This document shows, piece by piece, positions 9,957 to 58,885 of a stretch of 64,000 nucleotides of DNA. The notes under the pieces are model-generated. The model was not told the DNA's origin. It saw nothing but the letters and a program-made list of their open reading frames with translations, and made no database searches. Both the position numbers and the translations under genes were made by a program. Positions within the stretch are counted from its first letter, which is position 1. Every line of letters begins with the position of its first letter. The stretch comes from a candidate division WWE3 bacterium CSP1-7 (GTDB taxonomy: Bacteria > Patescibacteriota > WWE3 > 9FT-COMBO-53-11): contig LDXK01000001.1 in NCBI GenBank assembly GCA_001443395.1, forward strand, positions 47,426 through 111,425. Reading direction: 5' to 3'.

Positions 9957-10001
9957 TGGACGGCCGCCTATGGCGACCTAGCATTTTGAAGAAACAAAAT
10001 G
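9957..10001 (+). repeat. Structured intergenic repeat, copy J (TGGACGG-hairpin-CCTAGCAT, then a second hairpin CATTTTG-AAGAAA-CAAAATG containing the ndh ATG)
   Basis: Hairpin 1 GGCCGCC-TAT-GGCGACC. Hairpin 2 pairs CAU with the start AUG. Confidence 0.7.
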
Positions 10002-15075: not shown

Positions 15076-15089
15076 GCTCTAATGATAAC

Positions 15090-16530: not shown

Positions 16531-16562
16531 TGGACGGCTCGGCTATGCCGAACCTAGCATTC
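16531..16562 (+). repeat. Structured intergenic repeat, copy F (between rel start and recJ stop)
   Basis: TGGACGG + GGCTCGGC-TAT-GCCGAACC + TAGCATTCC, followed by CATTCC-GGAG-GAATG and ATGTGA (start-stop). Confidence 0.65.
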
Positions 16563-18189
16563 CGGAGGAATGTGAAAGTTTTACATCCCGCGCTTTCAAG
16601 GTGATGCTTTCCTTACCTTGCCAGGATTCAATCTGAGGAGTGTAGGCAAAATCAATGGTCTGGCCGCGAGCCAACGGTTGGGTGGCGTTAAACCACAAAA
16701 CCTCAAATCCCGGGGCGACCCCCAGCTTGAGGTGGTTCTTCCCGCGCCCCACTTTTTTGACCTGTAAAACAGTTGCGCCCTCGGCCAGAAAAACCGGTTC
16801 GGGATTATCAACTCCGTGAGGAGAGAAATCCTGCAGTTCTTTAACCAACCCGGAATCAATCATCTCCAACGGAAGGGGGAAGTCAATCTTGAGAACGGGA
16901 CGCGGGTCTAGTTTTGACAATTCCGGGTCGGCGTTTTTACGGACGGTTTTTATAAACTCTTCCAGTTTCTCGGTTCTGATCGTAAAACCGGCGGCGGCGG
17001 CGTGACCGCCAACATCCTCCAATAATTTGCCCGCTCCGCGCAAAACATCCACAATATTTAAACCGTTAACCGAACGGGCGGAGCCTTTGGAGAAATCCTT
17101 GCCTTGGGAGATCACGATCGCCGGCCGACCGTACTCCTCGACAATTTTGCCGGCTACCAAACCGATGATTCCCTCATGCCAGGAATCGTGATGGATGACA
17201 ATCAGTCCTTCCTCGCCCTCTACCAATCCCTTGGCGTGGTCGAAGGTATGCACCGTCAGTTCCTGCCTCTCGGTGTTGACTCGATTGAGAACCTGAGCCA
17301 GCTGGTGAGCCCGGGTAGGATCGGTAGTGCACAGGAGGCGCAGCGCCTCAATCCCGTGTTTGAGCCGGCCGACCGCATTGATCCGCGGGCCAAACACCCA
17401 TCCCGCCGCGTAGCTTCCCAGTGTTCCCGGCTTAAGGCCGGCAATCTCCGCCAGAGCCAGCAGGCCGGGACGCTCCAACCGGTTAAGCACCTCAAATCCG
17501 GATCTCACCAGCGAGCGGTTCGCTCCCAGAAGCGGCTGCAGATCCGCCACCGTGGCGATCGCCACGAGATCAAGACTAGGGTCTAGGGAATAGGGTTTAG
17601 GGGGTAGCTGAGATGCCAGCAACCAGGCGATGCCGGTGCCGCAGAGGGCAGTGGTGTGGACAATGGCGTAGGCCTTCGGTAATTTTCGGGGTTTGAGGTG
17701 GTGGTCGGTGATGATCAGATCAGCTCCCAATTCTTTGATCAGGTCCGCCTCCGCCCCGGCCGTTATTCCGGAGTCGACTGTGATAATCAAACGGCAACCC
17801 TCCCCCACCAGTTTTTTGATTGCGGCGGCGCCCAGGCCGTACCCCTCCTCAAAACGGTCGGGAATGTGGGGAAGGGCTTTTGCCCCCAGTCCGTACAACG
17901 TTTGCCACAGAACCGCGGTGGCGCAGATACCATCCACATCGTAGTCCCCCCAGACAATAATCTTCTCCCCTTTTTGAATGGCGGTTTTGATTCGAGAAAC
18001 AGCGCGGTTGAGCTGGTCTTGATCAAGATCGGAAAAATACTTGGCGGATTGGGCAATCAGATCGCTTGGTTTGGGAGGGGTGAAGAATTCCTCCTGGTTC
18101 TTGATTCCCCTATTACCGAGAAGAGTTCTTTTGATTTCTTCCAGATTATCCGGCTTCCGGTCGCTAACCAATTCCCATCGTTTTTTCAT
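16543..18189 (-). CDS. recJ: Single-stranded-DNA-specific exonuclease RecJ
   Basis: DHH motifs 'VWGDYDVDG' and 'ITDHH', followed by a DHHA1-like region. Confidence 0.85.
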   Translation of the reverse strand: MKKRWELVSDRKPDNLEEIKRTLLGNRGIKNQEEFFTPPKPSDLIAQSAKYFSDLDQDQLNRAVSRIKTAIQKGEKIIVWGDYDVDGICATAVLWQTLYGLGAKALPHIPDRFEEGYGLGAAAIKKLVGEGCRLIITVDSGITAGAEADLIKELGADLIITDHHLKPRKLPKAYAIVHTTALCGTGIAWLLASQLPPKPYSLDPSLDLVAIATVADLQPLLGANRSLVRSGFEVLNRLERPGLLALAEIAGLKPGTLGSYAAGWVFGPRINAVGRLKHGIEALRLLCTTDPTRAHQLAQVLNRVNTERQELTVHTFDHAKGLVEGEEGLIVIHHDSWHEGIIGLVAGKIVEEYGRPAIVISQGKDFSKGSARSVNGLNIVDVLRGAGKLLEDVGGHAAAAGFTIRTEKLEEFIKTVRKNADPELSKLDPRPVLKIDFPLPLEMIDSGLVKELQDFSPHGVDNPEPVFLAEGATVLQVKKVGRGKNHLKLGVAPGFEVLWFNATQPLARGQTIDFAYTPQIESWQGKESITLKARDVKLSHSSGMLGSA

Positions 18190-21288: not shown

Positions 21289-21332
21289 CAATTTTTCTTA
21301 AAAATTGCTAGCCCGCTTAGGCGGGCGTCCAA
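21289..21332 (-). repeat. Structured intergenic repeat, copy M (upstream of the wHTH-MNT gene)
   Basis: Minus strand TTGGACG + CCCGC-CTAA-GCGGG + CTAGCAAT, then CAATTTTT-AAG-AAAAATTG, then the SD and ATG. Confidence 0.65.
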
Positions 21333-22628: not shown

Positions 22629-22659
22629 AAGGACGGCTTGGCTACGCCAAACCTAGCCT
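22629..22659 (+). repeat. Structured intergenic repeat, copy G (degenerate)
   Basis: AAGGACGG + GCTTGGC-TAC-GCCAAAC + CTAGCC, then TTAGC-TTT-GCTAA, then a GTG start at 22681. Confidence 0.5.
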
Positions 22660-28348: not shown

Positions 28349-28389
28349 TTTGGTTTACCAAAATGCTAGGGCGTTTCTGCGCCCGTCCA
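28346..28389 (-). repeat. Structured intergenic repeat, copy A (rny leader)
   Basis: Minus strand TGGACGG + GCGCAG-AAA-CGCCC + TAGCAT, then CATTTTGG-TAAA-CCAAAATG (includes the rny ATG). Confidence 0.7.
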
Positions 28390-30423: not shown

Positions 30424-30498
30424 CGGGGCGTAGGTCATCGGTAGACCGCTCGCATGGGGTGCGAGAGGTAGTGGGTTCAATTCCCGCCGCCCCGACCA
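30424..30498 (+). tRNA. tRNA-Pro (anticodon GGG), CCA encoded
   Basis: Acceptor CGGGGCG/CGCCCCG, D-arm GGTC-ATCGGTA-GACC, anticodon stem CTCGC/GCGAG with loop ATGGGGT (GGG, G37), and T-arm GTGGG-TTCAATT-CCCGC. Ends ACCA. Confidence 0.85.
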
Positions 30499-31795: not shown

Positions 31796-31838
31796 TTGGA
31801 CGCGACCTTGTCGCTAGAAATTTTGCGAAGCAAAATTT
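31796..31838 (+). repeat. Structured intergenic repeat, copy L (in a convergent spacer)
   Basis: TTGGACG + CGAC-CTT-GTCG + CTAGAAA, then AAATTTTGC-GAA-GCAAAATTT. Confidence 0.55.
31818..31838. terminator. AT-rich perfect hairpin AAATTTTGC-GAA-GCAAAATTT in the thpR/rpsI convergent spacer (candidate bidirectional terminator)
   Basis: 9-bp perfect stem. Lies immediately 3' of a TGGAC-hairpin-CTAGA repeat copy. Confidence 0.4.
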
Positions 31839-32277: not shown

Positions 32278-32322
32278 TTTATTTCTTTAAAATGCTAGGT
32301 TCGGCGTTAGCCGAGCCGTCCA
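32275..32322 (-). repeat. Structured intergenic repeat, copy B (rpsI leader; overlaps the rplM 3' end)
   Basis: Minus strand TGGACGG + CTCGGC-TAAC-GCCGAA + CCTAGCAT, then CATTTTA-AAGAAA-TAAAATG (rpsI ATG). Confidence 0.7.
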
Positions 32323-33896: not shown

Positions 33897-33938
33897 TATC
33901 TTGAATAGGACGCCCGCCTCAGGCGGACTAGCTATCCG

Positions 33939-34553: not shown

Positions 34554-34585
34554 ATTGGACGGCTCGCCTGCGGCGAACCTAGCAA
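34554..34585 (+). repeat. Structured intergenic repeat, copy H (between rpsD start and rpsK stop)
   Basis: TTGGACGG + CTCGCC-TGC-GGCGAA + CCTAGCAAT. Confidence 0.65.
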
Positions 34586-35011: not shown

Positions 35012-35056
35012 TTTTTGTTTATTCAAAATGCTAGGTCGTTTCTTCGGCCGTCCATT
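35009..35056 (-). repeat. Structured intergenic repeat, copy C (rpsK leader)
   Basis: Minus strand TGGACGG + CCGAAG-AAA-CGACC + TAGCAT, then CATTTTG-AATAAA-CAAAAAATG (rpsK ATG). Confidence 0.7.
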
Positions 35057-35503: not shown

Positions 35504-35533
35504 TTGGACGGTCGCCTTAGGTGACCTAGCAAT
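35504..35533 (+). repeat. Structured intergenic repeat, copy I (between rpsM start and rpmJ stop)
   Basis: TTGGACGG + TCGCC-TTA-GGTGA + CCTAGCAAT. Confidence 0.65.
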
Positions 35534-42280: not shown

Positions 42281-42316
42281 TTTTTCAAAATGCTAGGTCG
42301 TTTCTTCGGCCGTCCA
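42278..42316 (-). repeat. Structured intergenic repeat, copy D (rpmC leader; near-identical to copy C)
   Basis: Minus strand TGGACGG + CCGAAG-AAA-CGACC + TAGCAT, then CATTTT-GAA-AAAATG (rpmC ATG). Confidence 0.7.
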
Positions 42317-46629: not shown

Positions 46630-46938
46630 CTACATCTTCACCTCTACCCCGACGCCGGCGGGGAGATCGAGGTTGGAGAGTTCATCAATGGTTTTGGGGG
46701 TGGGTTCTTCGATATCGACCAGCCTTTTGTGCGTTAGGATTTCAAACGATTCGCGGGAACGCTTGTCGATGTGAGGGGAACGGATCACAGTAAAAATCTC
46801 CCGTTCTGTCGGGAGTGGGATGGGGCCTACGACCTTGGCGCCGGTGCGAATCGCCGCATCGACAATCTTCTCCGCGCTGCGGTCAATCACCCGGGCGTCG
46901 TAAGCTTTTAAACGAACTCTAATCCTTCCTTTTGGCAT
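46630..46938 (-). CDS. rpsJ: 30S ribosomal protein S10
   Basis: '[22 protein letters not shown]'. Confidence 0.9.
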
Positions 46939-46975: not shown

Positions 46976-48166
46976 TTACTTGATAACCTTGGAAACGACT
47001 CCCGCTCCCACTGTGTGCCCTCCTTCGCGAATTGCGAAGCGCACACCCTCTTCGAGAGCAATCGGCTGAATCAGTTTTGCCGTAACTTTGACGTTGTCAC
47101 CCGGCATCACCATCTCCACCTCTTTGGGAAGAGTAACCTCGCCCGTTACATCGGTGGTCCGCAGGTAGAACTGCGGCCGATAGCCGGTGAAGAAAGGAGT
47201 GTGGCGCCCGCCTTCCTCTTTGGAGAGAACGTAGACCTCGGCCTCAAACTCGGTGTGGGGAGTAATCGAACCGGGAATCGCCACTACCTGACCGCGCTCG
47301 ATATCGTCCCGCTCAATTCCGCGGAGAAGAAGACCGACGTTGTCACCGGCCTGAGCTTCATCCAACGATTTGCGAAACATCTCTACTCCGGTCACGACCG
47401 TCTTTTTTGTATCCTTTAGACCGACCAACTCAACTTCATCGTTTACCTTGATCTTGCCACGATCGACGCGACCGGTCGCAACTGTTCCTCGGCCCTTGAT
47501 GGAGAAAACATCTTCCACCGGCATCAGGAAAGGTTTGTCCAGATCGCGTACCGGAGTGGGAATGTAGTCATCGACTGCTTTCATTAACTCTTCGATGCTC
47601 TTGAGAGCCTCGGCGTCACCGTCGAGGGCTTTCAAGGCGGAACCACGAATCACCGGAACTTTGTCACCCGGGTATTCGTACTTGCTCAGGAGCTCCCGAA
47701 CCTCAACCTCCACCAGGTCGATTAGCTCCTTGTCGTCAACCATGTCCACTTTGTTGATGAAAACGACAATCGCCGGCACGTTCACCTGGTGCGCCAAAAG
47801 AATGTGCTCCCGGGTTTGCGGCATCGGGCCGTCCGGAGCAGAAACAACCAAAATCGCCCCATCCATCTGAGCGGCGCCGGTGATCATATTCTTAATGTAG
47901 TCGGCGTGTCCCGGAGCGTCGATGTGAGCGTAGTGGCGCTTCTCGGTTTCGTATTCGACGTGAGAAATGTTAATGGTAATCCCACGTTCCTTTTCCTCGG
48001 GAGATTTGTCGATATCTTCAAACTTATAAAACTCCGACATCCCCTTGGTGGAAAGGTATTTGGTGATGGCCGCGGTAAGGGTGGTCTTCCCGTGGTCAAC
48101 GTGGCCGATTGTGCCCACGTTTACGTGGGGTTTGGTTCTTTCAAATTTCTTTGCTGCTTCTGCCAT
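46976..48166 (-). CDS. tuf: Elongation factor Tu
   Basis: '[10 protein letters not shown]', 'DAPGHADY' and 'NKVDMVDD'. Confidence 0.95.
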
Positions 48167-48177
48167 TGGACTAGTAG

Positions 48178-48206
48178 ATGTTAGAGCTTAATGCTAAGTA
48201 TGTCAA
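48178..48206 (-). promoter_or_regulatory. tuf promoter (-35 TTGACA, 17 nt spacer, -10 TAACAT)
   Basis: Perfect -35 consensus, read on the minus strand ~10 nt upstream of the tuf ATG. Confidence 0.5.
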
Positions 48207-48251: not shown

Positions 48252-48335
48252 GGAACCTTCTCGTAATAAGGCTTCTCGCTAACGCTCAGGAACCTTGTCC
48301 GCCTCTGGCGGATAAGGCTTCTCGCTAACGCTCGA
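48252..48335. repeat. Two imperfect tandem ~46-nt units in the fusA-tuf spacer, each ending in the 22-nt exact repeat ATAAGGCTTCTCGCTAACGCTC (48266-48287 and 48312-48333)
   Basis: Exact 22-mer duplicated 46 nt apart. Each unit begins GGAACCTT(C/G)TC. Confidence 0.8.
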
Positions 48336-48343
48336 AGACCATC

Positions 48344-50446
48344 TTACTCACGCTTCCCACCGGAAATGATTTTTGAGGCAACACTTTCCGGGACGCGTTC
48401 GTAATGAGATGGTTCAATGTTAAAAGTTCCTCTTCCCGATGTCAAGGAACGAATGGTAGTGGCGTAGCCAAAAATTTCGGCCAGCGGCACAATTGCTTTG
48501 ATGACCTGGGCATTGCCGCGCGAATCCGTTCCCTGGATCTGTGCCCGCCGGGAAGAGAGGTCCCCCATCGTTTCCCCCAGATATTGCTCGGGAATAATAA
48601 CTTCAATTTTCATAATCGGCTCGAGCAGGACCGGCTTCCCCCGCCGGCATCCCTCCCGGGTAGCTTCGGAGGCGGCAATCTGGAAGGCAATATCGGAGGA
48701 ATCCACCTCGTGAAAAGAACCATCGAACAGCGTCGCCCGCAGATCAATCATCGGATATCCGGCCAAAACTCCTTTGCCGAGAGCCTCTTTCACGCCTTTT
48801 TCGGAGGGCGGAATAAATTCGACCGGAATTGATCCACCCCGAATCGCATTCACAAATTCGAAACCGGATCCCGGGGGCAGCGGTTCGTACTTGAGGAAGA
48901 CATGCCCGTATTGCCCTCTCCCCCCCGACTGGCGAATGTACTTACCCTCCTGCTCAACCATGGCGGTGATCGTTTCCTTGTAGGCCACCTGGGGAGCGCC
49001 GACGTTTGCCTCGACCCCGAATTCCCGTTTCATTCGGTCAACCAGAATCTCCAGGTGAAACTCCCCCATTCCCGAGATGAGAGTTTCCCCGGTTTCGTGG
49101 TTGGACGAAATCTTGAAAGTCGGGTCTTCTTCCGCCAGTTTCTTCATCGCCTCTCCTAACTTCTCCTGGTCGGCCTTGGTCTTGGGTTCGATCATCACCG
49201 AAATCACCGGTTCGGGGAAGGAAATGTTTTCCAAAATTATCGGGGATTTTTCGTCCGAAAGACTGTCGCCGGTGGTGGTCTGCGCCAAACCAACCGCTGC
49301 GCCAATCTCTCCCGCCCCAATCTCGGGAATCTCTTCGCGAGAGTTGGCGTGCATCAGGAGAATGCGGCTGATTCTCTCCTTGACACCCTTGGTGGCATTA
49401 AGAACGTAGGAACCGGAAGAAATTTTGCCAGAATAAACTCGAAAGAAAGTTAATCGACCGACAAACGGATCGGTTTGAACTTTGAAGGCCAGCGCTGCGA
49501 ATGGTTCACTGGTGTCGGCTTTGTGGGTCGTTTTGTTTCCGGAAAAATCCAGCCCCTCCACCGCCGGCCGATCCAAAGGCGAGGGCAGGTAATCCACCAC
49601 CGCATCCAAAACTTTTTGCACTCCTTTGTTGTGCAGGGAGGATCCGCAGAGAACCGGAAAAACCTGACCGGTAAGGGTCGCCCGACGCAGGGCTTCTTTC
49701 AGCTCTTCATCCGAAATCTCCTGCCCCGCCAGATATTTTTCCAAGAGCTGCTCGTCCTCTTCGGCAATCGCTTCAATCGTTTTCGCCCGGTACTGGGCCA
49801 TCTTTTCTTTGAATTCCTCCGGCACCTCCTCCTCAATGACATCCTCCCCCAACTTCCCCTCGAAGCGGTAGGCTTTCTGCGCCAGGACGTCGATCATCCC
49901 GGAAAAATCACCTTCCCGGCCAATAGGAAAATTCAGGACAACCGTCTTGGCGTTTAGTTTCTCTTTGATGGAGGCAAGATCCTCATCAAAATCGGCCCCG
50001 ATCTTGTCCATCTTGTTGATAAAACAGATCCGCGGAATGTTGTACTTGTCGGCCTGCCGCCAAACTTTTTCGGATTGGGGCTCAACTCCTTCCTTTCCAT
50101 CAAAAACCACCACCGCCCCATCCAAGACTCGGAGGGAACGCTCCACCTCCGCCGTAAAATCGACATGGCCGGGAGTGTCGATAATGTTAATCCGGCAGTC
50201 CCGCCAAAAAGTGGTTGTGGCCGCGGCGGTAATCGTTACCCCCCGCTCCCGTTCCTGGACCATCCAGTCCATCACTGCCGCCCCCTCGTGGACCTCGCCG
50301 ATCTTATAGGTCCGACCGGTGTAATAGAGGAACCGCTCGGTTGTGGTCGTTTTACCCGCATCGATATGGGCGATGATCCCGATGTTTCGAACCTTATCGA
50401 GCGCCGCTTTGAATCCTATCTTATGTGAAAGTTTTTCTTCAACCAT
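48344..50446 (-). CDS. fusA: Elongation factor G
   Basis: '[14 protein letters not shown]' and the EF-G domains II-V. Start assigned to MVEEK at 50446, since the upstream in-frame ATG lies inside a repeat element. Confidence 0.9.
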
Positions 50447-50449
50447 GAT

Positions 50450-50480
50450 TTGGACGCGATTCTTTCGAATCGCTAACAAT
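50450..50480 (+). repeat. Structured intergenic repeat, copy K (in the divergent fusA / C39-like spacer, abutting the fusA ATG)
   Basis: TTGGACG + CGATTC-TTTC-GAATCG + CTAACAAT. Confidence 0.6.
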
Positions 50481-50579
50481 CTCATTCCATTCGATTGAAC
50501 GAATCATCTTACCAGAGCCAGGATAACGGAGCAACCGGCAAAATAGCAAACGACTAGACGCAGGATTTAAACTAAGAAG

Positions 50580-51488
50580 ATGATCTACACTCCCAAACGG
50601 CTCCAAAATCTCTATCTCTGGCAGGAGAAAAATCTGCGAATTGGTCGGGTCCTAAATCTTCCGAGCTATTCCGTTCGGAAAAAGAAATTTATTTCTTCAA
50701 AGGAGGGAAGAAAATTCTTAAGCTATCGCACCAAAAAAATCACCGACCTTAACGGCGTCGCCGTTTGGTTGGTAGACGGAATTGCGATCCGCAGCGGACT
50801 AAAAGCCGGTGATATTGATTTCACTATGGGCGGGCACGGCTATCGCTACCTTTACATCCCCGAAAAGGAAATCTGGATTGACAACGCCAACGCCCACCGC
50901 GGCGATCTTGAACCGGTCATCTGGCACGAGTACCTCGAACGCAAGCTAATGAAAGGGGGAATGGGTTATGACGGTGCCCACACCATCGCTTCGGACCTGG
51001 AAATTACTCTCCGCGAGGGAACTTATTTTGTTCTCCCGGTCGGCACCTTCCGCCAAACCGCCGGGTTCTGCGGCCCGGCCGCTCTAAAAATCGTCCTCAA
51101 TTACCACCAAATTCCTGCTACCGAAAAAAAGCTTTCCCAACTTTGCCGAACCACAAAAGCCGGCACCGATCCGCAAAATATTGTCGCCGCCGCCCAGAAA
51201 TTCGGACTCTCAGCTTATCAAAAAGAAAATATGACGGTCGAGGAAGTCAAGAAAATCATCAGAGGAGGAAATCCCGTCATCGCCAACTTTCAGCTCAAGC
51301 CGGAAAAGGGTGAAGGGCACTACGCCGTCATCGTGGGTTACAGTCGAAACACTTTTATCCTCTCCGATCCGCAGGAGGATCAGGGCTACCGCGAAGTTGG
51401 GATCAAAAATTTTATGAGTCTCTGGTACGAACTCGAAGACAAAACCGTTCGGCAAGGGATTGTGTTAAAACCACAAAAGGGATTGTAA
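50580..51488 (+). CDS. Fusion of a basic N-terminal region and an uncharacterised middle domain (GGHGY / WHEYxER motifs) to a C39-like papain-fold cysteine peptidase domain; paralog 1
   Basis: C-terminal half carries 'FCGPAAL' (Cys164), 'GHYAVIVGY' (His247) and 'ILSDPQEDQGY' (Asp263), matching the Peptidase_C39 / C39_2 catalytic motifs. No signal peptide. Confidence 0.6.
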   Translation: MIYTPKRLQNLYLWQEKNLRIGRVLNLPSYSVRKKKFISSKEGRKFLSYRTKKITDLNGVAVWLVDGIAIRSGLKAGDIDFTMGGHGYRYLYIPEKEIWIDNANAHRGDLEPVIWHEYLERKLMKGGMGYDGAHTIASDLEITLREGTYFVLPVGTFRQTAGFCGPAALKIVLNYHQIPATEKKLSQLCRTTKAGTDPQNIVAAAQKFGLSAYQKENMTVEEVKKIIRGGNPVIANFQLKPEKGEGHYAVIVGYSRNTFILSDPQEDQGYREVGIKNFMSLWYELEDKTVRQGIVLKPQKGL

Positions 51489-51539
51489 TTGGTGAAAAGT
51501 GAATTAAAATAAAGACAAAACCAAGATAAGGAGGGAGAG

Positions 51540-52562
51540 ATGGCGAAAAACGCTAGGGTCTTTCAGCCGCCGAGCCTTGCTGACCTTTATAGGAAGCATG
51601 AAAGCCTGCGAGTTTGGCGCGTCAAAAGCCTGAAGCGGCACCACGAGAAGAGCCGCCGCCTCCGTCAGCGCCGCAACTTCAAGCGCTATCGCATCCGGAT
51701 AATCGCCCGCCTACCGGGGGTAACCGTCTGGAGCATAGACGCGGATGCCCTTCGCGAAGGACTGGAAAAAGGCGATGTGGATTTCACGATGGGCGGGCAC
51801 GGATACACCCACCTCTATATCCCCCCAAATGAAATCTGGATCGCCAACGACCTACGGCGGCGTTCTGTCGTGCCGACAATCTGGCACGAATACTTTGAAC
51901 GGTTGCTGATGCGCGGGGGGATGCACTACAACACCGCCCACTCCCTCGCCTCTCGGCTGGAAATCACTCATCGGGAGGGAACCTACTTTGTTCTGCCGGT
52001 CGGAACTCATCACCAGAGAGAAGATGGCTTCTGCTTGCCGGCGACGCTCAAGATCTACCTAAGCTATCTGGGCCGGAACTTCTCCGAAGGACACCTTGCT
52101 CGGCTCTGCAAAACCACGGTCGAAAATGGCACCGATCCGATCAACGTCGTCACCGCGGTGCGCCGCCTTGGTTTCAGGGTCCAACATCGGGGCCGACCGC
52201 TGATGCTTCGGGAAATTCAGCGTTACTGCTCGGCCGCCGGAGCCAAGGGCAAGGAAAGGAAAGAGCTGACCAATCAAGTTCGCCGGCAAGCGGGCACCGT
52301 TCGGGTCCATCAAGCCTGGACCGCCGCGGAAGTCAAGAAGTCCCTCAAAAAGGGGCGGCCGGTCCTCGCCAACATCCAACTTAGCCGGGAGTACAAAAGC
52401 GGGCACTATCTAGTGGTCATCGGCTACACCAGCAACACCTTCGTCGTCAGTGACCCGAACGACGATAACGGTTACCGGGAAATCCCGATCCCCGAGTTCA
52501 TGAAGCTCTGGTATGAACTTGAGGACGGCACCGTTCGCGAAGGTTTTACAATCTCGTCTTAG
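51540..52562 (+). CDS. Paralog 2 of the middle-domain + C39-like peptidase fusion (Arg-rich N-terminus, internal insert)
   Basis: About 45% identical to paralog 1 by eye. Conserved 'DFTMGGHGY', 'IWHEYFER..LM.GGM', 'REGTYFVLPVGT', Cys in 'FCLPATL', 'GHYLVVIGY' and 'VVSDPNDDNGY'. Confidence 0.6.
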   Translation: MAKNARVFQPPSLADLYRKHESLRVWRVKSLKRHHEKSRRLRQRRNFKRYRIRIIARLPGVTVWSIDADALREGLEKGDVDFTMGGHGYTHLYIPPNEIWIANDLRRRSVVPTIWHEYFERLLMRGGMHYNTAHSLASRLEITHREGTYFVLPVGTHHQREDGFCLPATLKIYLSYLGRNFSEGHLARLCKTTVENGTDPINVVTAVRRLGFRVQHRGRPLMLREIQRYCSAAGAKGKERKELTNQVRRQAGTVRVHQAWTAAEVKKSLKKGRPVLANIQLSREYKSGHYLVVIGYTSNTFVVSDPNDDNGYREIPIPEFMKLWYELEDGTVREGFTISS

Positions 52563-52595
52563 CGAGATTGCTAGGTTCGCGAAGCGATCCGTCCG
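52549..52595 (-). repeat. Structured intergenic repeat, copy E (3' of C39-like paralog 2)
   Basis: Minus strand CGGACGG + ATCGC-TTC-GCGAA + CCTAGCAAT, then CAATCTCG-CTAAGA-CGAGATTG. Confidence 0.6.
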
Positions 52596-52608
52596 ATCTT
52601 CAACTGAA

Positions 52609-52644
52609 CCCCCAACTTGGGATGCCAAGCTGGGGGTTTTTATT
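52609..52644 (+). terminator. Rho-independent terminator after C39-like paralog 2 (12-bp stem CCCCCAACTTGG/CCAAGCTGGGGG, loop GATG, then TTTTTATT)
   Basis: Long GC-rich stem with one mismatch, followed by a T-run. Confidence 0.75.
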
Positions 52645-52685
52645 GACCAATTCTGCTACATTTATTCCAGGGAGGTGATTAATCA

Positions 52686-52886
52686 ATGATGTTTTTTGGC
52701 AGTCTACTAATTCTGTTGGGAGGTTTTTGGCTCTTGAGCAACCTGGGAATAATCTCGGCCGAGTTCTGGCAGGTCTTTTGGCCCACGATTGTCATTCTCT
52801 TGGGAGTCAAACTCTTGTTCGGGCCCTCCAAGTGGAAGAAGTTTTGGACCCAATTCGAAGACGGGAAAAAAATTAAGATCGAATAG
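52686..52886 (+). CDS. Small two-TM membrane protein (LiaF-N/DUF5668-like)
   Basis: Strong SD 'GGGAGGTGA' 6 nt upstream. Two hydrophobic helices with an 'LSNLGII' motif. Confidence 0.5.
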   Translation: MMFFGSLLILLGGFWLLSNLGIISAEFWQVFWPTIVILLGVKLLFGPSKWKKFWTQFEDGKKIKIE

Positions 52887-52892
52887 CCTCGC

Positions 52893-53387
52893 TCAAGCCG
52901 CCGGGACTTTAAAGATCAGCCCCACCACATAGCCAATTAGGGCGGCGGCTATGCCGATCAACGTAATCTTTAATCCCTCGAGTCCGAGATTCAAACCGAT
53001 TACCCGGGCTTTGTAAATTCCGAGAAGAAAAAGAAAGATGGCCGAAATGAGAACGGCAACTTTTATCCCTAGAGAAATCGGAAAAAAAGCAAAAGGGAGA
53101 ATGGGAATTATCGAGCCAAAGATCGCGGAAACACCCACAATCAGCGCGTCGGTTAGCGCGTGAGATCCTGTCATCGAAGAGGTGTAGGCCACCGCGGCCA
53201 TCGAAAAAGATTCCGCAAAGGTCGCGGCTAATCCCGCCGCCAAGACGATTCGAGTATCTCCCGAAGCCGCCGCCACACCCAGGGTCACCCCCAAAACATT
53301 CACCAGTCCGTCCTGACCGCCGAGAATGATGTCCCGAAGATCGAGCTGGCGGTGTTTGAGTTCTCCCAAGCGGGAAATTTTAGTCAT
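52893..53387 (-). CDS. VIT1/CCC1-family (DUF125) membrane transporter, membrane domain only (putative Fe/Mn efflux)
   Basis: 'ILGGQDGLVNVLGVTLGVAAA' matches the VIT family signature. Five TM helices. Confidence 0.6.
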   Translation of the reverse strand: MTKISRLGELKHRQLDLRDIILGGQDGLVNVLGVTLGVAAASGDTRIVLAAGLAATFAESFSMAAVAYTSSMTGSHALTDALIVGVSAIFGSIIPILPFAFFPISLGIKVAVLISAIFLFLLGIYKARVIGLNLGLEGLKITLIGIAAALIGYVVGLIFKVPAA

Positions 53388-53884
53388 TTCAAGTTCCTCT
53401 CCCCCGCGGCGATCGGCACCTTCAGCCAGTTCTCCACCGGAGGCAGAGGACAGGAGTAGCCCGAGCTGTAGGCGCAGTAGGGGTTGTAGGCATAATTGAA
53501 ATCGAGCTCAAACTTCCCATCTTTCTCCTCTACCTCCAGGTAACGACCGGCGCCGTAGGTTTCTTTGCCTGAGGTCGCGTCGCGAAAGGGCAGGAAAAAA
53601 GAACCACTGGCAGCTTGGTAGAGGGTGATTTGAACCGGCTGGCCCTCGACCGAAAAACCAAGTTTCCCAATCCGCTTGAAGATCTTTTTCTCCCCGGAGG
53701 AAGTTTCAAATTCGAGCTCCTCTTCCGGAACTCGGGCCAGCGGAACGAGAAAACGCAGTTTCGGATCATCCGGAAAATATTTCAAACCCGCAAAGGAAGT
53801 CCGTTCCTCGACCGGAATTGGCGATTCGGTCCCGGTTTTTAAAAATTCGTCTTTGCGTTTGCGAAATTCCAACAGACTTTCCAT
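53384..53884 (-). CDS. DUF1684-family protein
   Basis: 'FRDATSGKETYGAGRYLEV' and 'NPYCAY' motifs resemble DUF1684. Confidence 0.55.
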   Translation of the reverse strand: MESLLEFRKRKDEFLKTGTESPIPVEERTSFAGLKYFPDDPKLRFLVPLARVPEEELEFETSSGEKKIFKRIGKLGFSVEGQPVQITLYQAASGSFFLPFRDATSGKETYGAGRYLEVEEKDGKFELDFNYAYNPYCAYSSGYSCPLPPVENWLKVPIAAGERNLK

Positions 53885-53925
53885 ATCCTAACTCTAGCAA
53901 AGCCAAAGATAGGTTGGGTGATAGA

Positions 53926-54291
53926 ATGACCCTTGTGATTAGCTTTATTCGCCTCGCAAAATCCTTCCGCCACGCCTGGCGCGGACTCGTTCACACGCTA
54001 TTTTTCCATCAGAATCTGAGAATTCACTTGGTGGCGGCGGTTATCACCGCCGCACTCGGACTCTATTTTCAGATATCTTCCCGAGAGTGGTTTGGCATTC
54101 TGGTTGCCATCTTCTTGGTCCTGGTGGCGGAGATGATCAACACCTCTTTGGAGGAGATAATCAACCTAGTGAGAGAGGATCACCACGAAAAAGCCCGCAT
54201 TGCCAAGGACGTCTCGGCGGGAATGGTGCTTTTGGCGACGATCTTTGCCGTCCTAGTGGGATTGGCTGTCTTTCTACCCCGAGTATTCTAA
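53926..54291 (+). CDS. dgkA: Diacylglycerol kinase / undecaprenol kinase (DgkA family)
   Basis: Three TM helices and a 'VLVAEMINTSLEEIINLV...AKDVSAGMVL' DgkA signature. Start assigned to MTLVIS. Confidence 0.7.
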   Translation: MTLVISFIRLAKSFRHAWRGLVHTLFFHQNLRIHLVAAVITAALGLYFQISSREWFGILVAIFLVLVAEMINTSLEEIINLVREDHHEKARIAKDVSAGMVLLATIFAVLVGLAVFLPRVF

Positions 54292-54357
54292 AGAGTTACC
54301 AACGGAAATAAGACTATTCGCGAAAGCTCATAGATCATCTTTCCTCGATGACTAGCG

Positions 54358-54846
54358 TCACCAGCGGAAATGGGCAAAGGCGCGGTTGGCGTCGGCGATC
54401 CGGTGAACTTCCTCCTTCTTCTTGACGGCCGCTCCTTCGTTGTTGTAGGCCGCCGTTAACTCCTGAGCCAGCCGCTCCGCCAACGGGCTGCCCTTTTTGC
54501 TCCGGGCGGAGTTTACGAGCCAACGAATGGCGAGCGCCTGCGCCCGTTCCGTCCGAACCTGAGTGGGAACCTGGTAGGTTGCTCCCCCCACCCGGCGGGA
54601 ACGAACCTCCAACTGCGGAGTAACGTTGGTCACCGCCTGGGTCAGAACCAGAAGCGGCTCGGCCCCCAGAGCCTGCGCCGCCTTGTCCATCGCTTGGTAG
54701 ACCGCGGCCTGGGCCGTGGCCTTTCGGCCGCTCAACATAATTTGGTTGGTGAATTTTGCCACAACCGTGGAACCAAAGCGGTAATCCGATTCCAGCTGTC
54801 TTTTTCGGACCGGGCCTCCTCTAGGCATTTGCTTCTCCTTCCGCAC
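54358..54846 (-). CDS. rpsG: 30S ribosomal protein S7
   Basis: '[35 protein letters not shown]'. Start may be at MPRGG (54828). Confidence 0.9.
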
Positions 54847-55306
54847 TCGCTGCTACCGGCTCGGGTGCCGCAGTCGCCGGCTGCGGTCGACTTCCTTCTG
54901 CGACCCTCTTGGCCCCATAGATGGAGCGGCTGGTCCGACGGCCTTCCACCCCCGCCGTGTCAAAAACACCCCGGACAATCGTGTACTTGATTCCCGGCAA
55001 ATCCTTGACCTTCCCGCCCCGCACCATCACGATCGAGTGTTCCGCCAGATTGTGGCCCTCACCGGGGATATAGGACGTGACTTCCCGCCCATTCGAGAGG
55101 CGAACCCGCGCCACCTTGCGAAGCGCAGAATTAGGTTTCTTGGGAGTCATCGTCCTCACCTGCAAAACCACCGCTCTCTTAAAAGGAGAGTTCGCGACCT
55201 TCTTGCGCCGGCGGAGCGAGGAATAGATCTCCGCCAGAGCCGGGGCTTTGGTTTTGTGGGCAATCTTTTTTCTCCCCTTTTTGATGAGCTGTTGAACCGT
55301 TGGCAT
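54821..55306 (-). CDS. rpsL: 30S ribosomal protein S12 with a ~35-aa C-terminal extension
   Basis: '[34 protein letters not shown]' core, then an Ala/Pro/Glu-rich tail. Confidence 0.9.
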
Positions 55307-58300
55307 CTATTTTGCCTCCTTCTTCACCTTCTCCTCCTTCTTCTTCTCTTTGAGTTGCGATCTCTCTCCGGTTGGGATCAACCGACCCACAATGACGCTC
55401 TCCTTTAATCCTAAGAGATTATCAACCTTTCCCGCGGCCGCTGCTTCCGTCAGGATTCGCGTTGTCTCCATGAAAGAGGCCGCCGAAAGCCAGGAATCGG
55501 TCTTGAGAGAAGAACGGGTAATTCCCAACAGGACCGGTTCTCCGACCGCCCGCTTTGATCCCTTGGAAAGCTCATCATTCGCCTTCTCCAGTTGGATCTT
55601 GGTGATGATTTCTTCAGGAATAAATTCGGTATCTCCGGGGTCGGTGATCCGCAACTTGTTGAACATCTGCCGGACAATCACTTCCAAATGAATATCATCC
55701 AATGAAATCCCCTGGCCGGAGTAAACCTTGAGAATCTCATTCACCAAATATTTCTGGGTGGAGAGGATCCCACGGACGCCCAAAATTTTCTTCGGATCGA
55801 GGTACCCCTCGGTGAGCTGGACGCCGGCTTCCACCTTCTCACCATCCTTCACCAGAATGTTGCGGCCCACCGGAACGTCAAACTGCATTGCCCCCTCCTT
55901 GCCGGTAAGGAAGACCTTCCGGGAATCTCCTTCTTCCGAAACCGAGATCTTTCCGGCGTAGGGAGCCACGTTCGCTTCGAATTTTGGTGTCCGGGCCTCG
56001 AAAACCTCCTCGATCCTCGGCAAACCTTGGGTGATGTCTTTACTGGCGGCGATTCCACCCATGTGTTTTGTCCGCAGAGTTAACTGCGTTCCCGGCTCCC
56101 CAATTGACTGAGCGGCCACTATCCCGACGGGAGTCCCTATCGCTGCCGGCCGGTTACGCCCCAGATCCAAACCGTAACAGGACGCGCAAACTCCGTGAAG
56201 ACTTTCACAGGTAAGCGGGGAACGAATCTTGACTTCCGTAATTCCAGACTTTTCAATCGCCTCCGCCGCGAGGGCATCAATGAGTTCATTTTTCTTCACC
56301 AAAACCTTGCTGCGAATCTTGATATCTTCCGCCGCAACTCGCCCATTCAAGCGACGTGAGAAAGTAATCAAGAACGTTTCTTCCTCTTTGGCGAGGGAGA
56401 TGGAGTTCTTTGTTTTGCAATCAGCTTCTCGAATCAAAACGTCCTGGGCAACATCCACCAACCTCCGCGTGAGGTAACCGGCGTCGGCGGTCCGCAGCGC
56501 CGTGTCCACCAGTCCCTTGCGGGCCCCGCGAGCCCCCACGAAATATTCGAAGCTGGTTAAACCCTCCCGATAGTTGGAGCGGATCGGTAGTTCGACCACT
56601 TTTCCGGTCGGATCCACGACATGGCCCCGCATTCCCGAAATCTGCTTCACTTGGTCCCGAGTGGCCCGCGCCGCTCCCGAACCGATAATTAGTTTGATCG
56701 GGTTGTCTTCCCCAAGAGCATTCCAAGCCAAATCATCTAAAACATTGGTGGCCTCACTCCAAACCACCCGGGAAAGCTCTTTTCTCTCAGAATCGGTGAT
56801 CAATCCCCGCCGGAAGTTTTGGTCGATTTCGGATACCTTCTTTTCGGCATCGGCCAAAACCTTGGGCTTTTCAGATGGGATAATTCCGTCAAAAGCCGAG
56901 ATGGAAGCGCCCGAATAAGTAGCGTAATGGAAACCAAGATGCTTGATCGCATCCACCAGATCGGCGACCACCTGATCCTCCGATTTTACCAATGCCTGAG
57001 AGATAAAATCTTTGGCTTCCTTTGCGCCCACTTTGCCATTATAAAAACGAAGGAAATCCGGCAAAACCGAGTTGAGGATTACCCGCCCCACGGTAGTCAC
57101 TAGGATCTGCTCCCCCACCATAACCTTGATTTTCTCGCGGAGAACAATCTTTTCAAGATCGTAGGCAATGATTGCCTCCTGTTCACTGCTAAAGACCTTG
57201 AAATCCTCTTCCTTTCGCGTCTCCTCTTCGACCGGGATGCTGGTCAGATAGTAAGTGCCCAAAACCTGTTCCTTGTTGGGAAAAGCAATCGGTTCACCGG
57301 TCGCGGGACGGAGAAGATTGTTCGTCGAAATCATCAGCGCCTTTACTTCCGCAATCGCTCTCTTTGAAATCGGAAGGTGGACCGCCATCGCGTCACCATC
57401 AAAATCGGCGTTGAATCCGGCACAAACCGCCGGGTGCAGTTGGATCGCGGAGCCATCCACTAAAATCGGATAAAAACCAAGGATAGAGAGACGGTGCAGG
57501 GAAGGGGCTCGATTCAGCAAAACCGGATGATCCACCACCAGTTGTTCAAGGATTTCCCAAACTTCGTCGGAACGCTCTTCCAAATAGGCCTTGGCACTTC
57601 TGAGATTGGAAGCGGATCCCCGCAGGAGAATTTCCCGGAGCACATGGGGCTTCCAAAGCTCCAGAGCCATTTCCCGAGGAATTCCCACTTGATTGAGTTT
57701 CAAATAGGGACCGACAACAATCACGGAACGCCCGGAGTAGTCCACTCGCTTTCCGAGCAAATTTTGACGGAAGCGACCCTGTTTTCCGGATAGAAGATCG
57801 GCAAACGACCGCAGGGTCTTTTTGCCCCGCCGCACCTTGCCGCGGCGCGCCTTGGAAGAATCGATTAGGGCATCAACGGCCTCCTGTAGCATCCGTTTTT
57901 CGTTACGGACAATAATTTCGGGAGCGCCTAGCTCTAGCAACTGGCGCAAGCGGTTATTGCGATTGATCACGGTCCGATAAAGATCGTTTAGATCGGAGGT
58001 TGCGAACCTTCCTCCCTCCAACTGGACCATCGGTCGCAGATCCGGCGGGATCACCGGCAAGACCGTCAGGATGAACCAAGCCGGCTCCACTCCGGCATTC
58101 TTGAGTCCTTCCACAATTCGCAAACGCCGGCGGGCCCAGACCCCTCGCTCCCCCTTGCTCTCGTGGACAACCTTGCGCAGCTGGAGCGAAATCTTGCCCA
58201 GATCAACTAGGGCCAGGGCCCGGCGAATCGCTTCCGCCCCCATCATCACTTCGGAAAATTCCTTTAGATAAGGCAACGCCAGTTCGACCTCCCGCTCCGA

Positions 58301-58885
58301 GAGAACCGAAAAGAGCTTAACGCTTTTGAGAACTTCCAGTCCCTCCCGTTTGGTATCGGAAAGTTTTATCTTGTTGGCCGGATCCTGCTCTTGTTTGATC
58401 TGCTGATTGAGATCGTGTTCAAATTTTTCCAGGACCGGACCGCGCTTCTCGCGATCAAACTCGGTGATCAGGTAGCGGGAGAAGTAGATTACCCCTTCCA
58501 CATCACGCGAAGAAATCCCCAGAAGAATACTGACCATGGAAGGAACTCCGCGGAAGAACCAGATGTGCGCCACCGGAGAAGCCAGGGAAATGTGCCCCAT
58601 CCGCTCCCGCCGGACCCGCTTGCTAGTGACCTCCACTCCGCACTTATCGCAGATGATTCCTTTAAAGCGGGCCTTCTTGTATTTTCCGCAGTAGCACTCG
58701 TAATCTTTGGTCGGGCCAAAAATCCGCTCATCAAAGAGACCATCTTTTTCCGCCTTGAAAGTTCGATAGTTGATTGTCTCCGGCTTGGTGACTTCACCAT
58801 AGGACCAACCCTTGATAATCTCCGGAGAAGCAAATTTAATTCTCAGAGAATCAAATTCTCGAAAAGCTTCCAAACCACTAGGCAT
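55307..58885 (-). CDS. rpoC: DNA-directed RNA polymerase beta' subunit
   Basis: Zn-finger 'CYCGKYKKARFKGIICDKCGVEV', 'NADFDGD' active site and a trigger-loop region. Confidence 0.95.
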   Translation of the reverse strand: MPSGLEAFREFDSLRIKFASPEIIKGWSYGEVTKPETINYRTFKAEKDGLFDERIFGPTKDYECYCGKYKKARFKGIICDKCGVEVTSKRVRRERMGHISLASPVAHIWFFRGVPSMVSILLGISSRDVEGVIYFSRYLITEFDREKRGPVLEKFEHDLNQQIKQEQDPANKIKLSDTKREGLEVLKSVKLFSVLSEREVELALPYLKEFSEVMMGAEAIRRALALVDLGKISLQLRKVVHESKGERGVWARRRLRIVEGLKNAGVEPAWFILTVLPVIPPDLRPMVQLEGGRFATSDLNDLYRTVINRNNRLRQLLELGAPEIIVRNEKRMLQEAVDALIDSSKARRGKVRRGKKTLRSFADLLSGKQGRFRQNLLGKRVDYSGRSVIVVGPYLKLNQVGIPREMALELWKPHVLREILLRGSASNLRSAKAYLEERSDEVWEILEQLVVDHPVLLNRAPSLHRLSILGFYPILVDGSAIQLHPAVCAGFNADFDGDAMAVHLPISKRAIAEVKALMISTNNLLRPATGEPIAFPNKEQVLGTYYLTSIPVEEETRKEEDFKVFSSEQEAIIAYDLEKIVLREKIKVMVGEQILVTTVGRVILNSVLPDFLRFYNGKVGAKEAKDFISQALVKSEDQVVADLVDAIKHLGFHYATYSGASISAFDGIIPSEKPKVLADAEKKVSEIDQNFRRGLITDSERKELSRVVWSEATNVLDDLAWNALGEDNPIKLIIGSGAARATRDQVKQISGMRGHVVDPTGKVVELPIRSNYREGLTSFEYFVGARGARKGLVDTALRTADAGYLTRRLVDVAQDVLIREADCKTKNSISLAKEEETFLITFSRRLNGRVAAEDIKIRSKVLVKKNELIDALAAEAIEKSGITEVKIRSPLTCESLHGVCASCYGLDLGRNRPAAIGTPVGIVAAQSIGEPGTQLTLRTKHMGGIAASKDITQGLPRIEEVFEARTPKFEANVAPYAGKISVSEEGDSRKVFLTGKEGAMQFDVPVGRNILVKDGEKVEAGVQLTEGYLDPKKILGVRGILSTQKYLVNEILKVYSGQGISLDDIHLEVIVRQMFNKLRITDPGDTEFIPEEIITKIQLEKANDELSKGSKRAVGEPVLLGITRSSLKTDSWLSAASFMETTRILTEAAAAGKVDNLLGLKESVIVGRLIPTGERSQLKEKKKEEKVKKEAK

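Follow-up and report, generated by a model that had tools for sequence, protein, structure and literature searches.

In Escherichia coli the four genes of the str operon, rpsL, rpsG, fusA, and tuf, encoding S12, S7, EF-G, and EF-Tu, are co-transcribed, and S7 acts as a translational regulator of the downstream genes. The str operon belongs to the most strongly conserved bacterial gene arrangements, and marker-gene and synteny analyses often take its contiguity for granted. A supercluster order of these operons has been described for Proteobacteria, and for the Gammaproteobacteria the same study describes small multigene insertions between translation and transcription operons, by which ancient collinear clusters of translation genes are interrupted in some lineages with the flanking order kept (Brandis, Cao and Hughes 2019, PMC6735719). 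Here, we describe the str operon of the candidate division WWE3 bacterium CSP1-7 on a 64,000-nt stretch of contig LDXK01000001.1 (positions 47,426 to 111,425 of the forward strand; assembly GCA_001443395.1), which is referred to as the window. In this window, rpsG and fusA are separated by a gap of 3,911 nt with six genes in mixed orientation, as given by the open reading frame (ORF) list and Pfam. This arrangement very probably goes back to an ancient splitting of the str operon that is specific to one WWE3 sub-clade, with ongoing gene turnover, separate transcription units, and later-arriving repeats.

A Split str Operon Shared by a WWE3 Sub-Clade

The genes rpsL, rpsG, fusA, and tuf are found in canonical order and all on the minus strand, but they are not contiguous. 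A previous interpretation of the window, made from the letters alone (the sequence-only reading), had placed six genes between rpsG, ending at 54358, and fusA, starting at 50446; all of its coordinates and identities agree with the ORFs and Pfam matches (Table 1), and the interruption of the operon is genuine. The 156-aa start of rpsG is the one chosen in the gene calls of identical contigs, while S7 translated from a longer 162-aa ORF start had no exact-sequence match in the look-up; the real start yields 156 aa. Alignments of the upstream regions show that 50446 is the fusA start homologous to those of the relatives.

That contiguity of rpsG and fusA is usual in bacteria, as had been supposed, is supported by two baselines, each with approximately 90% adjacent loci. 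In the S7 baseline, rpsG is located at most about 420 nt from fusA in 64 of 70 informative loci. For the loci fetched with EF-G this holds for 71 of the 78 informative loci among the matches listed, whose best identity was 63% and which comprised no close relatives, so that they serve as an adjacency baseline only.

Relatives were picked solely by S7 identity, their contigs were fetched, and the window proteins were mapped onto them by tblastn; two more genomes (L102 and L103) were obtained from a metagenome scan. In all 10 further genomes, with S7 identities of 62-93%, rpsG and fusA are separated by 1.1-6.3 kb. The flanks are collinear in every clade genome, with rpoB-rpoC-rpsL-rpsG on one side and fusA-tuf-rpsJ on the other, and the 11 split loci form one clade in a neighbour-joining tree of RpoC. 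The outgroup WWE3 GWC2_41_23 (L009) is situated outside this clade, and its rpsG and fusA adjoin each other with about 80 nt in between. For S7 of the window, identities of 81% and 70% were obtained with candidate division WWE3 bacterium RIFCSPLOWO2_01_FULL_53_14 and another WWE3 genome, respectively; the membership in the Patescibacteria, as assumed before, is thus specified to WWE3.

With respect to gene content, the LiaF-TM micro-protein gene is the sole cargo gene that occurs within the gap in all 11 clade genomes. The DUF1684 and VIT1 genes are always paired in the relatives and always located on the str strand, and the pair occurs in the gap of 6 of the 10 relatives (7 of 11 genomes including the window). 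Matches to dgkA by tblastn, ranging in extent from query residues 1-121 to 4-118, were obtained in five relatives and none in the remaining ones. Truncations within the gap are represented by the C39 remnant of L102 and by the dgkA gene calls of L092-L094, which comprise only 60-100 aa.

The cargo has a G+C content (GC) of 0.45-0.58 and a third-position G+C content (GC3) of 0.56-0.71, which overlap with the values of the flanks (GC 0.53-0.62, GC3 0.61-0.73). Pfam gave no integrase or transposase match for any of the six cargo proteins, the nearest tRNA gene is about 20 kb away from the gap (at 30424), and direct or inverted repeats are missing at the gap boundaries except for a weak similarity of 22-31 nt between the sequences downstream of rpsG and fusA. 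The core of the gap recurs in each of the 10 near-identical contigs and in relatives whose S7 identity is as low as 62-68%, and the accessory cargo alone is patchy. Phylogenetic distribution, flank-like composition, and the lack of mobile-element signs therefore argue for an old insertion at the base of the WWE3 sub-clade.

In the proposed scenario, foreign genes would have entered the short rpsG-fusA spacer in the ancestor of the sub-clade, at minimum LiaF-TM and probably also DUF1684-VIT1. Afterwards, the gap would have acted as a gene-turnover slot, in which dgkA, DUF5667, the C39-like peptidase, ABC transporters, and others were gained, truncated, or lost depending on the descendant. The C39-like peptidase would have been gained and later duplicated, and the window with its six genes would represent one present-day state. 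As the arrangement is ancestral to the sub-clade, the discrete 3.9 kb insertion in this genome, which the sequence-only reading had presumed, is not borne out by the synteny of the relatives; of the "insertion hotspot" proposed there, the variable gene content persists as a process over evolutionary time, and the single insertion event in this genome has to be given up.

Table 1. Features of the str locus in the window and gene content of the rpsG-fusA gap in relatives. Coordinates refer to the window unless a relative is named; in the gap rows, (-) denotes genes antisense to rpsG and fusA, and percentages are S7 identities to the window.
Feature	Coordinates	Strand	Evidence or content
rpoC	55307-58885	-	ORF list; upstream of rpsL
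rpsL (S12)	54821-55306	-	ORF list; Pfam Ribosom_S12_S23 E=9e-33; immediately downstream of rpoB-rpoC
rpsG (S7, 156 aa)	54358-54828	-	Pfam Ribosomal_S7 E=1e-55; final gene of the upstream half
rpsG/dgkA convergent spacer between stop codons	54292-54357		folding z = -1.0 and -0.35
dgkA-like (DAGK_prokar, diacylglycerol/undecaprenol kinase family, 121 aa)	53926-54291	+	Pfam E=5e-30; antisense to str genes
DUF1684-VIT1 extended -10 (predicted promoter)	53891-53899	-	TGCTAGAGT; ends 6 nt before the DUF1684 ATG
DUF1684 protein	53384-53884	-	Pfam DUF1684 E=3e-44; str strand; stop overlaps VIT1 start by 4 nt
VIT1-family (iron/manganese transporter family) membrane protein	52893-53387	-	Pfam VIT1 E=1e-25; str strand
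LiaF-TM micro-protein (66 aa)	52686-52886	+	Pfam LiaI-LiaF-like_TM1 PF18917 E=2e-11
C39a-C39b intrinsic terminator (predicted)	52606-52644	+	hairpin and U-run; after C39b
Hairpin repeat copy E	52571-52594	+	CTAGG-stem-loop-stem-CCGTCC; 8 nt after the C39b stop; L091 copy at equivalent position
C39b (C39-like cysteine peptidase paralog 2, 340 aa)	51540-52562	+	Pfam Peptidase_C39_2 E=9e-14; C39-like domain C-terminal
C39a (C39-like cysteine peptidase paralog 1, 302 aa)	50580-51488	+	Pfam Peptidase_C39 E=7e-17; divergent from fusA
C39a-C39b putative -10	50568-50573	+	TAAACT; ends 6 nt before ATG; weak, inferred
fusA promoter (predicted)	50506-50534	-	-35 TTGCTC 50534-50529, 17-nt spacer, TG 50514-50513, -10 TAAGAT 50511-50506
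Hairpin repeat copy K (variant)	50452-50476	-	TTAGC-GATTC-GAAA-GAATC-GCGTCC; 5 nt upstream of the fusA ATG; 7-bp stem by folding
fusA (EF-G, 700 aa)	48344-50446	-	Pfam GTP_EFTU, EFG_III, EFG_IV, EFG_C; opens the downstream half fusA-tuf-rpsJ and S10 cluster
tuf promoter-like site	48178-48206	-	TTGACA-17-TAACAT; consensus scan 10/12; ends 11 nt upstream of the tuf ATG
tuf (EF-Tu)	46976-48166	-	ORF list; gene calls with Pfam on identical contigs; rpsJ 37 nt further on
rpsJ	46630-46938	-	ORF list; S10 cluster after
Hairpin repeat copies, window	9958-9981, 16532-16557, 21308-21330, 22631-22656, 28366-28388, 31798-31817, 32295-32321		
Hairpin repeat copies, window (rest)	33908-33931, 34557-34582, 35031-35053, 35506-35529, 42293-42315, 50452-50476, 52571-52594		
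Hairpin repeat copies, relatives	L091 12568-12591; L092 14972-15000, 15033-15057		
Gap of L091 (93%)			128-aa ORF, dgkA(-), DUF1684, VIT1, LiaF(-), C39b(-), 80-aa ORF, C39a(-)
Gap of L092 (81%)			dgkA(-), DUF5667(-), DUF1684, VIT1, LiaF(-), C39b(-), C39a(-)
Gap of L093 (76%)			153-aa ORF, dgkA(-), DUF5667(-), DUF1684, VIT1, LiaF(-), one C39(-), 86-aa ORF
Gap of L094 (70%)			dgkA(-), DUF5667(-), DUF1684, VIT1, LiaF(-), 181-aa ORF, ABC transporter
Gap of L095 (70%)			DUF1684, VIT1, LiaF(-)
Gap of L096 (68%)			dgkA(-), DUF1684, VIT1, LiaF(-), 74-aa ORF, one C39(-)
Gap of L097 (65%)			DUF5667(-), LiaF(-)
Gap of L102 (64%)			DUF5667, LiaF, Rce1-like protease, 58-codon C-terminal C39 remnant, M10-like peptidase
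Gap of L098 (62%)			kinase-like gene, LiaF(-), GH18, two unknowns, acetyltransferase, ABC transporter
Gap of L103 (62%)			132-aa ORF, LiaF(-)

Predicted Promoters, Terminators, and Transcription Units

The genes fusA and tuf appear to possess their own conserved sigma-70-type promoter, the activity of which we infer from sequence conservation. A promoter had been anticipated within the divergent region 50447-50579, and the candidate site TTGCTC-17-TAAGAT located there recurs in conserved form in all 11 genomes, including those with an S7 identity of only 62%: the positions TG, TA, and AT do not vary, and the G of the -35 box hardly does (alignments A1 and A2). The clade consensus reads TTG(C/A)nn for the -35 box, followed by a 17-nt spacer and TGnTAAGAT. 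This motif is absent from the outgroups and relatives in which rpsG adjoins fusA. For the window, the transcription start is predicted near 50499 on the minus strand. In 8 of the 11 genomes, although not in the window, the -10 box ends 10-22 nt before the fusA ATG without an intervening ribosome-binding site, which implies a leaderless or nearly leaderless mRNA.

In case of DUF1684-VIT1, the T, G, T, A, and T of the extended -10 motif as well as the ATG are invariant in 7 of 7 genomes (alignment A3), including L095, where DUF1684 directly follows rpsG, and the mRNA is predicted to be leaderless. The promoter-like element upstream of tuf, TAACATCTACTAGTC(C/A)AATGG, was also found in L091-L093, and the putative -10 box TAAACT of C39a is conserved only in the window, L091, and L092 (alignment A4). 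A strong terminator and the repeat copy E had been reported after the second C39 paralog, and both were located there (52606-52644 and 52571-52594, respectively); the 101-nt terminator region folds with -40.3 kcal/mol (z = -4.36), and 0 of 200 shuffled sequences fold as well.

From these signals, six transcription units would result. The first would comprise rpoBC-rpsL-rpsG and the second dgkA, antisense to the str genes. The third, DUF1684-VIT1, would be leaderless and start from the extended -10 motif situated 6 nt before the ATG, the fourth, C39a-C39b, would stop at the strong terminator, and LiaF-TM with its strong ribosome-binding site would form the fifth. The sixth would lead from TTGCTC-17-TAAGAT (50534-50506) through fusA-tuf into the S10 genes. 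With such separate units, the synthesis of EF-G and EF-Tu would be transcriptionally uncoupled from that of S12 and S7, as judged from the conserved signals.

The -10 boxes of DUF1684, tuf (48178-48183), and C39a are located only 6-12 nt before the ATG with no ribosome-binding site in between, and the same applies to fusA in the majority of relatives, the window being an exception. Leaderless or near-leaderless mRNAs may accordingly be widespread in the lineage, beside genes with strong ribosome-binding sites such as LiaF-TM.

Cargo and Flanking Genes

The small LiaF-like transmembrane gene had been noted for its strong Shine-Dalgarno sequence, and the corresponding ribosome-binding site GGGAGGTGA is indeed located at 52670-52678, 7 nt upstream of the ATG. 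By tblastn, the protein is 48-83% identical to its relatives in L091-L098, L102, and L103. Its 66 aa match the transmembrane region of LiaF alone (PF18917, PF22570), and adjacent two-component genes are missing; judged by these domain matches, the gene encodes a LiaF-TM-like micro-protein and not LiaF.

The two C39-like proteins are 44% identical to each other. Their scores for PF03412 and PF13529 amount to 38-62 bits compared to cut-offs of 22-24, and the full-length NCBIfam cut-offs are missed by a wide margin; each protein stands alone, without fusion to a bacteriocin-type ABC exporter, and the gap contains neither an ABC gene nor a precursor peptide. In C39a, only residues 163-286 match the ComA peptidase domain in the PDB (E=4e-6). 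Inspection of the translations by eye revealed GFCGP/GFCLP and GHY motifs in C39a and C39b, and a catalytic role of the Cys and His residues is presumed from the alignment with the ComA-type domain. For the N-terminal part of approximately 155 aa (50580-51050 and 51540-52010), no sequence match was obtained in Pfam, NCBIfam, or the PDB; this region is conserved between both paralogs, e.g., DFTMGGHGY...IWHEY.ER.LM.GGM.Y..AH. The slot of the C39 genes is occupied by an ABC transporter in L094 and by the C39 remnant together with an M10-like peptidase and an Rce1-like protease in L102, and its contents hint at a theme of peptide processing or export.

The closest PDB entries of the DUF1684 protein are annotated as "uncharacterized protein". 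The DUF1684/VIT1 junction is the site of strain variation: at 53388-53392, 8 of 10 near-identical contigs contain approximately 44 extra bases, giving a 181-aa DUF1684 product that overlaps VIT1, while the product has 166 aa in the window, L083, and L085. Near-identical strains also differ in the length of the fusA-tuf spacer, which comprises 140 nt in L085 and 177 nt in L081. In the window, this spacer contains an exact 22-nt direct repeat just downstream of fusA (48266-48287 and 48312-48333, 46 nt apart). The stretch of 22-31 nt after rpsG (54308-54338), with about 74-77% similarity to the sequence that follows fusA, has a recognisable counterpart behind rpsG of L094 (10493-10514). S12 comprises 161 aa and ends in a low-complexity tail rich in Ala, Pro, and Glu (54821-54920, the 3' end of rpsL). 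This tail is apparently variable, as the tblastn matches in several relatives end at about residue 130-140. In L095, a metagenome-assembled genome from NCBI, tuf is present as two overlapping ORFs of 127 and 302 aa (14120-15359), due to either a frameshift error or a pseudogene.

Alternative Explanations

Several points weigh against an ancient split with separate transcription units. Sequence conservation and folding are the basis on which the promoters and the terminator were predicted, the -35 and -10 boxes of fusA match the E. coli consensus at 7 of 12 positions only, and the site was missed by the consensus scanner. Furthermore, no convincing intrinsic terminator was found after rpsG in the window (54292-54357), where the sequence folds no better than shuffled sequence, and read-through from rpsG across the antisense dgkA into DUF1684-VIT1 or further is possible for this reason. 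The sampling of the clade comprises 11 genomes, and the neighbour-joining tree was built from a single protein and carries no support values. Unrelated small ORFs are found on the sister contig L106, which breaks off 1.9 kb past rpsG and is uninformative. Finally, one ancestral insertion, with the presence of LiaF-TM in every gap as the main argument, is the parsimonious but not a proven explanation.

Given the possible read-through, the locus might still be one functional super-operon, in which transcription from the rpoBC/rpsL promoter passes through the cargo into fusA-tuf, DUF1684-VIT1 has been recruited, and the fusA promoter is an internal booster, comparable to the internal promoter known for tufA of E. 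coli. Besides the lack of a clear terminator after rpsG in the window, the location of DUF1684-VIT1 on the str strand in 7 of 7 genomes, in L095 only 51 nt after rpsG, is in agreement with this explanation. We nevertheless regard it as unlikely, since three or four antisense genes (dgkA, LiaF-TM, C39b, and C39a) would lie in the path of the polymerase, with long antisense RNAs and head-on collisions as consequences, since DUF1684 and fusA each have their own conserved promoter, and since a terminator-like hairpin with a T-run is situated right after rpsG in L092.

A functional linkage, by which LiaF-TM and/or DUF1684-VIT1 are kept next to fusA through co-regulation or an action on translation, e.g., via a shared divergent promoter region, would explain the occurrence of LiaF-TM in the gap of all 11 genomes across deep divergence and the minimal arrangements of L095, L097, and L103, in which LiaF-TM is divergent from fusA at a distance of approximately 130-180 nt. 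In six genomes (window, L091, L092, L093, L096, and L102), however, one to several genes are located between LiaF-TM and fusA and neither gene was lost, which argues against a required shared control region. All of the identifiable cargo belongs to membrane or peptidase families without a known tie to translation, and in small genomes with rare recombination, inheritance alone can suffice to preserve synteny. Therefore, such a linkage is considered very unlikely.

Even less can be said for a recent horizontal acquisition, i.e., a 3.9 kb island or mobile element of this genome bounded by the hairpin repeats. The mixed orientation of functionally unrelated membrane and peptidase proteins and the repeat copies near one end and inside of the block would fit, but the same core genes occur at the same place in relatives down to 62-68% S7 identity, the cargo resembles its flanks in composition and lacks the integrase or transposase matches, the adjacent tRNA gene, and the boundary repeats of such an element, and repeat copy K is missing from nine of the split relatives (see below). 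It is highly improbable that the gap arose in this way.

An assembly artefact, in which a chimeric contig, joined wrongly at one junction or at both, conceals a true adjacency of rpsG and fusA, is conceivable for a metagenome-derived source with short hairpin repeats near fusA that could mislead the assembler, but its probability is practically nil, because divergent relatives share the split and both junctions are spanned by 10 independently assembled contigs with 99.6-100% identity (ENA, JGI, and Logan; window 49500-55500), so that the misassembly considered in the sequence-only reading is excluded. These contigs originate from different samples, including Rifle aquifer sediment, and from various assemblers and providers (ENA megahit k141 and k127 among the assemblies), and they show an identical gene order; their only difference to this part of the window is the indel of approximately 44 bp where DUF1684 meets VIT1. 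Contigs with a gene for the identical C39a protein were present in no fewer than 56 blocks of the public collection.

Hairpin Repeats

The repeat motif TGCTAGG-stem-loop-stem-CCGTCCA occurs in 14 intergenic copies in the 64-kb window, in both orientations relative to the neighbouring genes. The stems vary in sequence, yet all of them pair due to compensatory changes. Using Rfam with gathering thresholds on the whole window, only three tRNAs were detected and neither a ribosomal protein leader nor a family for the hairpin repeat.

Copy K belongs to about 40-45 nt of inserted sequence that lie between the fusA promoter and the ATG. Its position next to the ATG, at a distance of 5 nt, agrees with the previous description, but it does not bound the gap: copy K is absent at the equivalent position in 9 of the 10 split relatives, with the segment missing from L091, L093, L094, L096-L098, L102, and L103. 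In L093-L098, all of which have the split, no member of the repeat family was detected. The repeats are therefore of later date than the split and had no part in causing it, and copies K and E as ends of an insertion were rejected on the same grounds. Copy K was also rejected as promoter of C39a, which has its own -10-like box conserved in L091 and L092, the former of which lacks copy K.

The fusA leader of L092 (14960-15095) comprises approximately 100 nt with two repeat copies, oriented oppositely to copy K, at the same position as copy K, between the -10 box and the ATG; the fusA leader was hit by the repeat independently in the window and in L092. In the fusA-tuf spacer of L092 (about 17205-17371), the tuf ATG is separated from the conserved tuf promoter TAACATCTACTAGTCAA precisely by two degenerate copies of the extended repeat form described below. 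Due to the insertion with copy K, an in-frame ATG is present in the window at 50485, 39 nt upstream of the homologous fusA start (50447-50485). If used, it would give an EF-G with a 13-residue, repeat-encoded N-terminal extension.

Five copies (9958, 28366, 32295, 35031, and 42293) immediately precede a start codon and show the extended form AAAAAT-GGACGG-hairpin-CCTAG-CATTTTGAAGAAACAAA-ATG, and their flanks resemble -35 (TGGACG) and -10 (TAGCAT) boxes 15-19 nt apart. The hairpin repeat could represent a REP-like (repetitive extragenic palindromic) element or a combined terminator/promoter cassette. Under the latter assumption, the element GGACGG-hairpin-CCTAGCATTTTGAAGAAACAAA-ATG may be a portable unit of terminator, promoter, and short leader, which would insert precisely between promoters and start codons. 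Such placements were found at fusA of the window (one copy, reverse orientation), at fusA and tuf of L092 (two copies each), and at five or more other genes of the window. If true, the cassette rewires the expression of core translation genes. It is tempting to speculate that the rpsG-fusA gap is a long-lived gene-turnover slot within a core operon, made tolerable by leaderless-type promoters at the start codons, although we consider this explanation, combined with that of the portable hairpin cassette, rather doubtful.

Implications and Comparison with Known Systems

The long-lasting separation of rpsG and fusA with an own fusA promoter and changing cargo indicates that co-transcription of EF-G and EF-Tu with S12 and S7 would be dispensable, at least in these slow-growing organisms with small genomes. 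Binning and synteny tools that expect rpsG beside fusA meet a real break in this lineage, and the split is a potential shared derived character to delimit the WWE3 sub-clade. By itself, it reveals no new molecular mechanism. In the literature searched, no description of an rpsG-fusA split in WWE3 or Patescibacteria was found.

In addition to the WWE3 sub-clade, a split was observed in other Patescibacteria (L010, L013, L042, L062, and L072), in which rpsG and fusA are located 0.6 kb to more than 10 kb apart. Where examined, an extended -10 motif precedes fusA here as well, TGCTATACT in L062 and L072 and TGGTAAAAT in L013. No homologues of the six window proteins were detected in these five loci by tblastn at 1e-5 and their ORF content is unrelated, which argues for independent events.

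Presumably, the hairpins of the window are comparable to REP-type repeats, which they resemble by description: they are likewise short (about 25-50 nt), intergenic, present in multiple copies with compensatory stems between short conserved flanking motifs and in both orientations, and restricted to a lineage. Unlike typical REPs, a subfamily in the window is located at a fixed distance of 17-19 nt upstream of start codons, with flanks like -35 and -10 boxes.

Compared to the canonical str operon of E. coli, Salmonella, and most bacteria, the WWE3 locus agrees in the four genes, in their order and orientation, and in their location after rpoBC and ahead of the S10 cluster, but differs by the 3.9 kb gap with six genes in mixed orientation and by the conserved promoter of fusA. 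A coupling of the E. coli type between S7 and the downstream genes cannot operate across this gap. While the gammaproteobacterial insertions, as far as described in the available text (PMC6735719), are located between operons, the interruption in WWE3 lies inside the str operon of a lineage of the candidate phyla radiation, and the content of its gap is still changing. The WWE3 split is thus a lineage-specific case of a known type of event, in which a conserved operon is disrupted by an insertion and an internal promoter is acquired.

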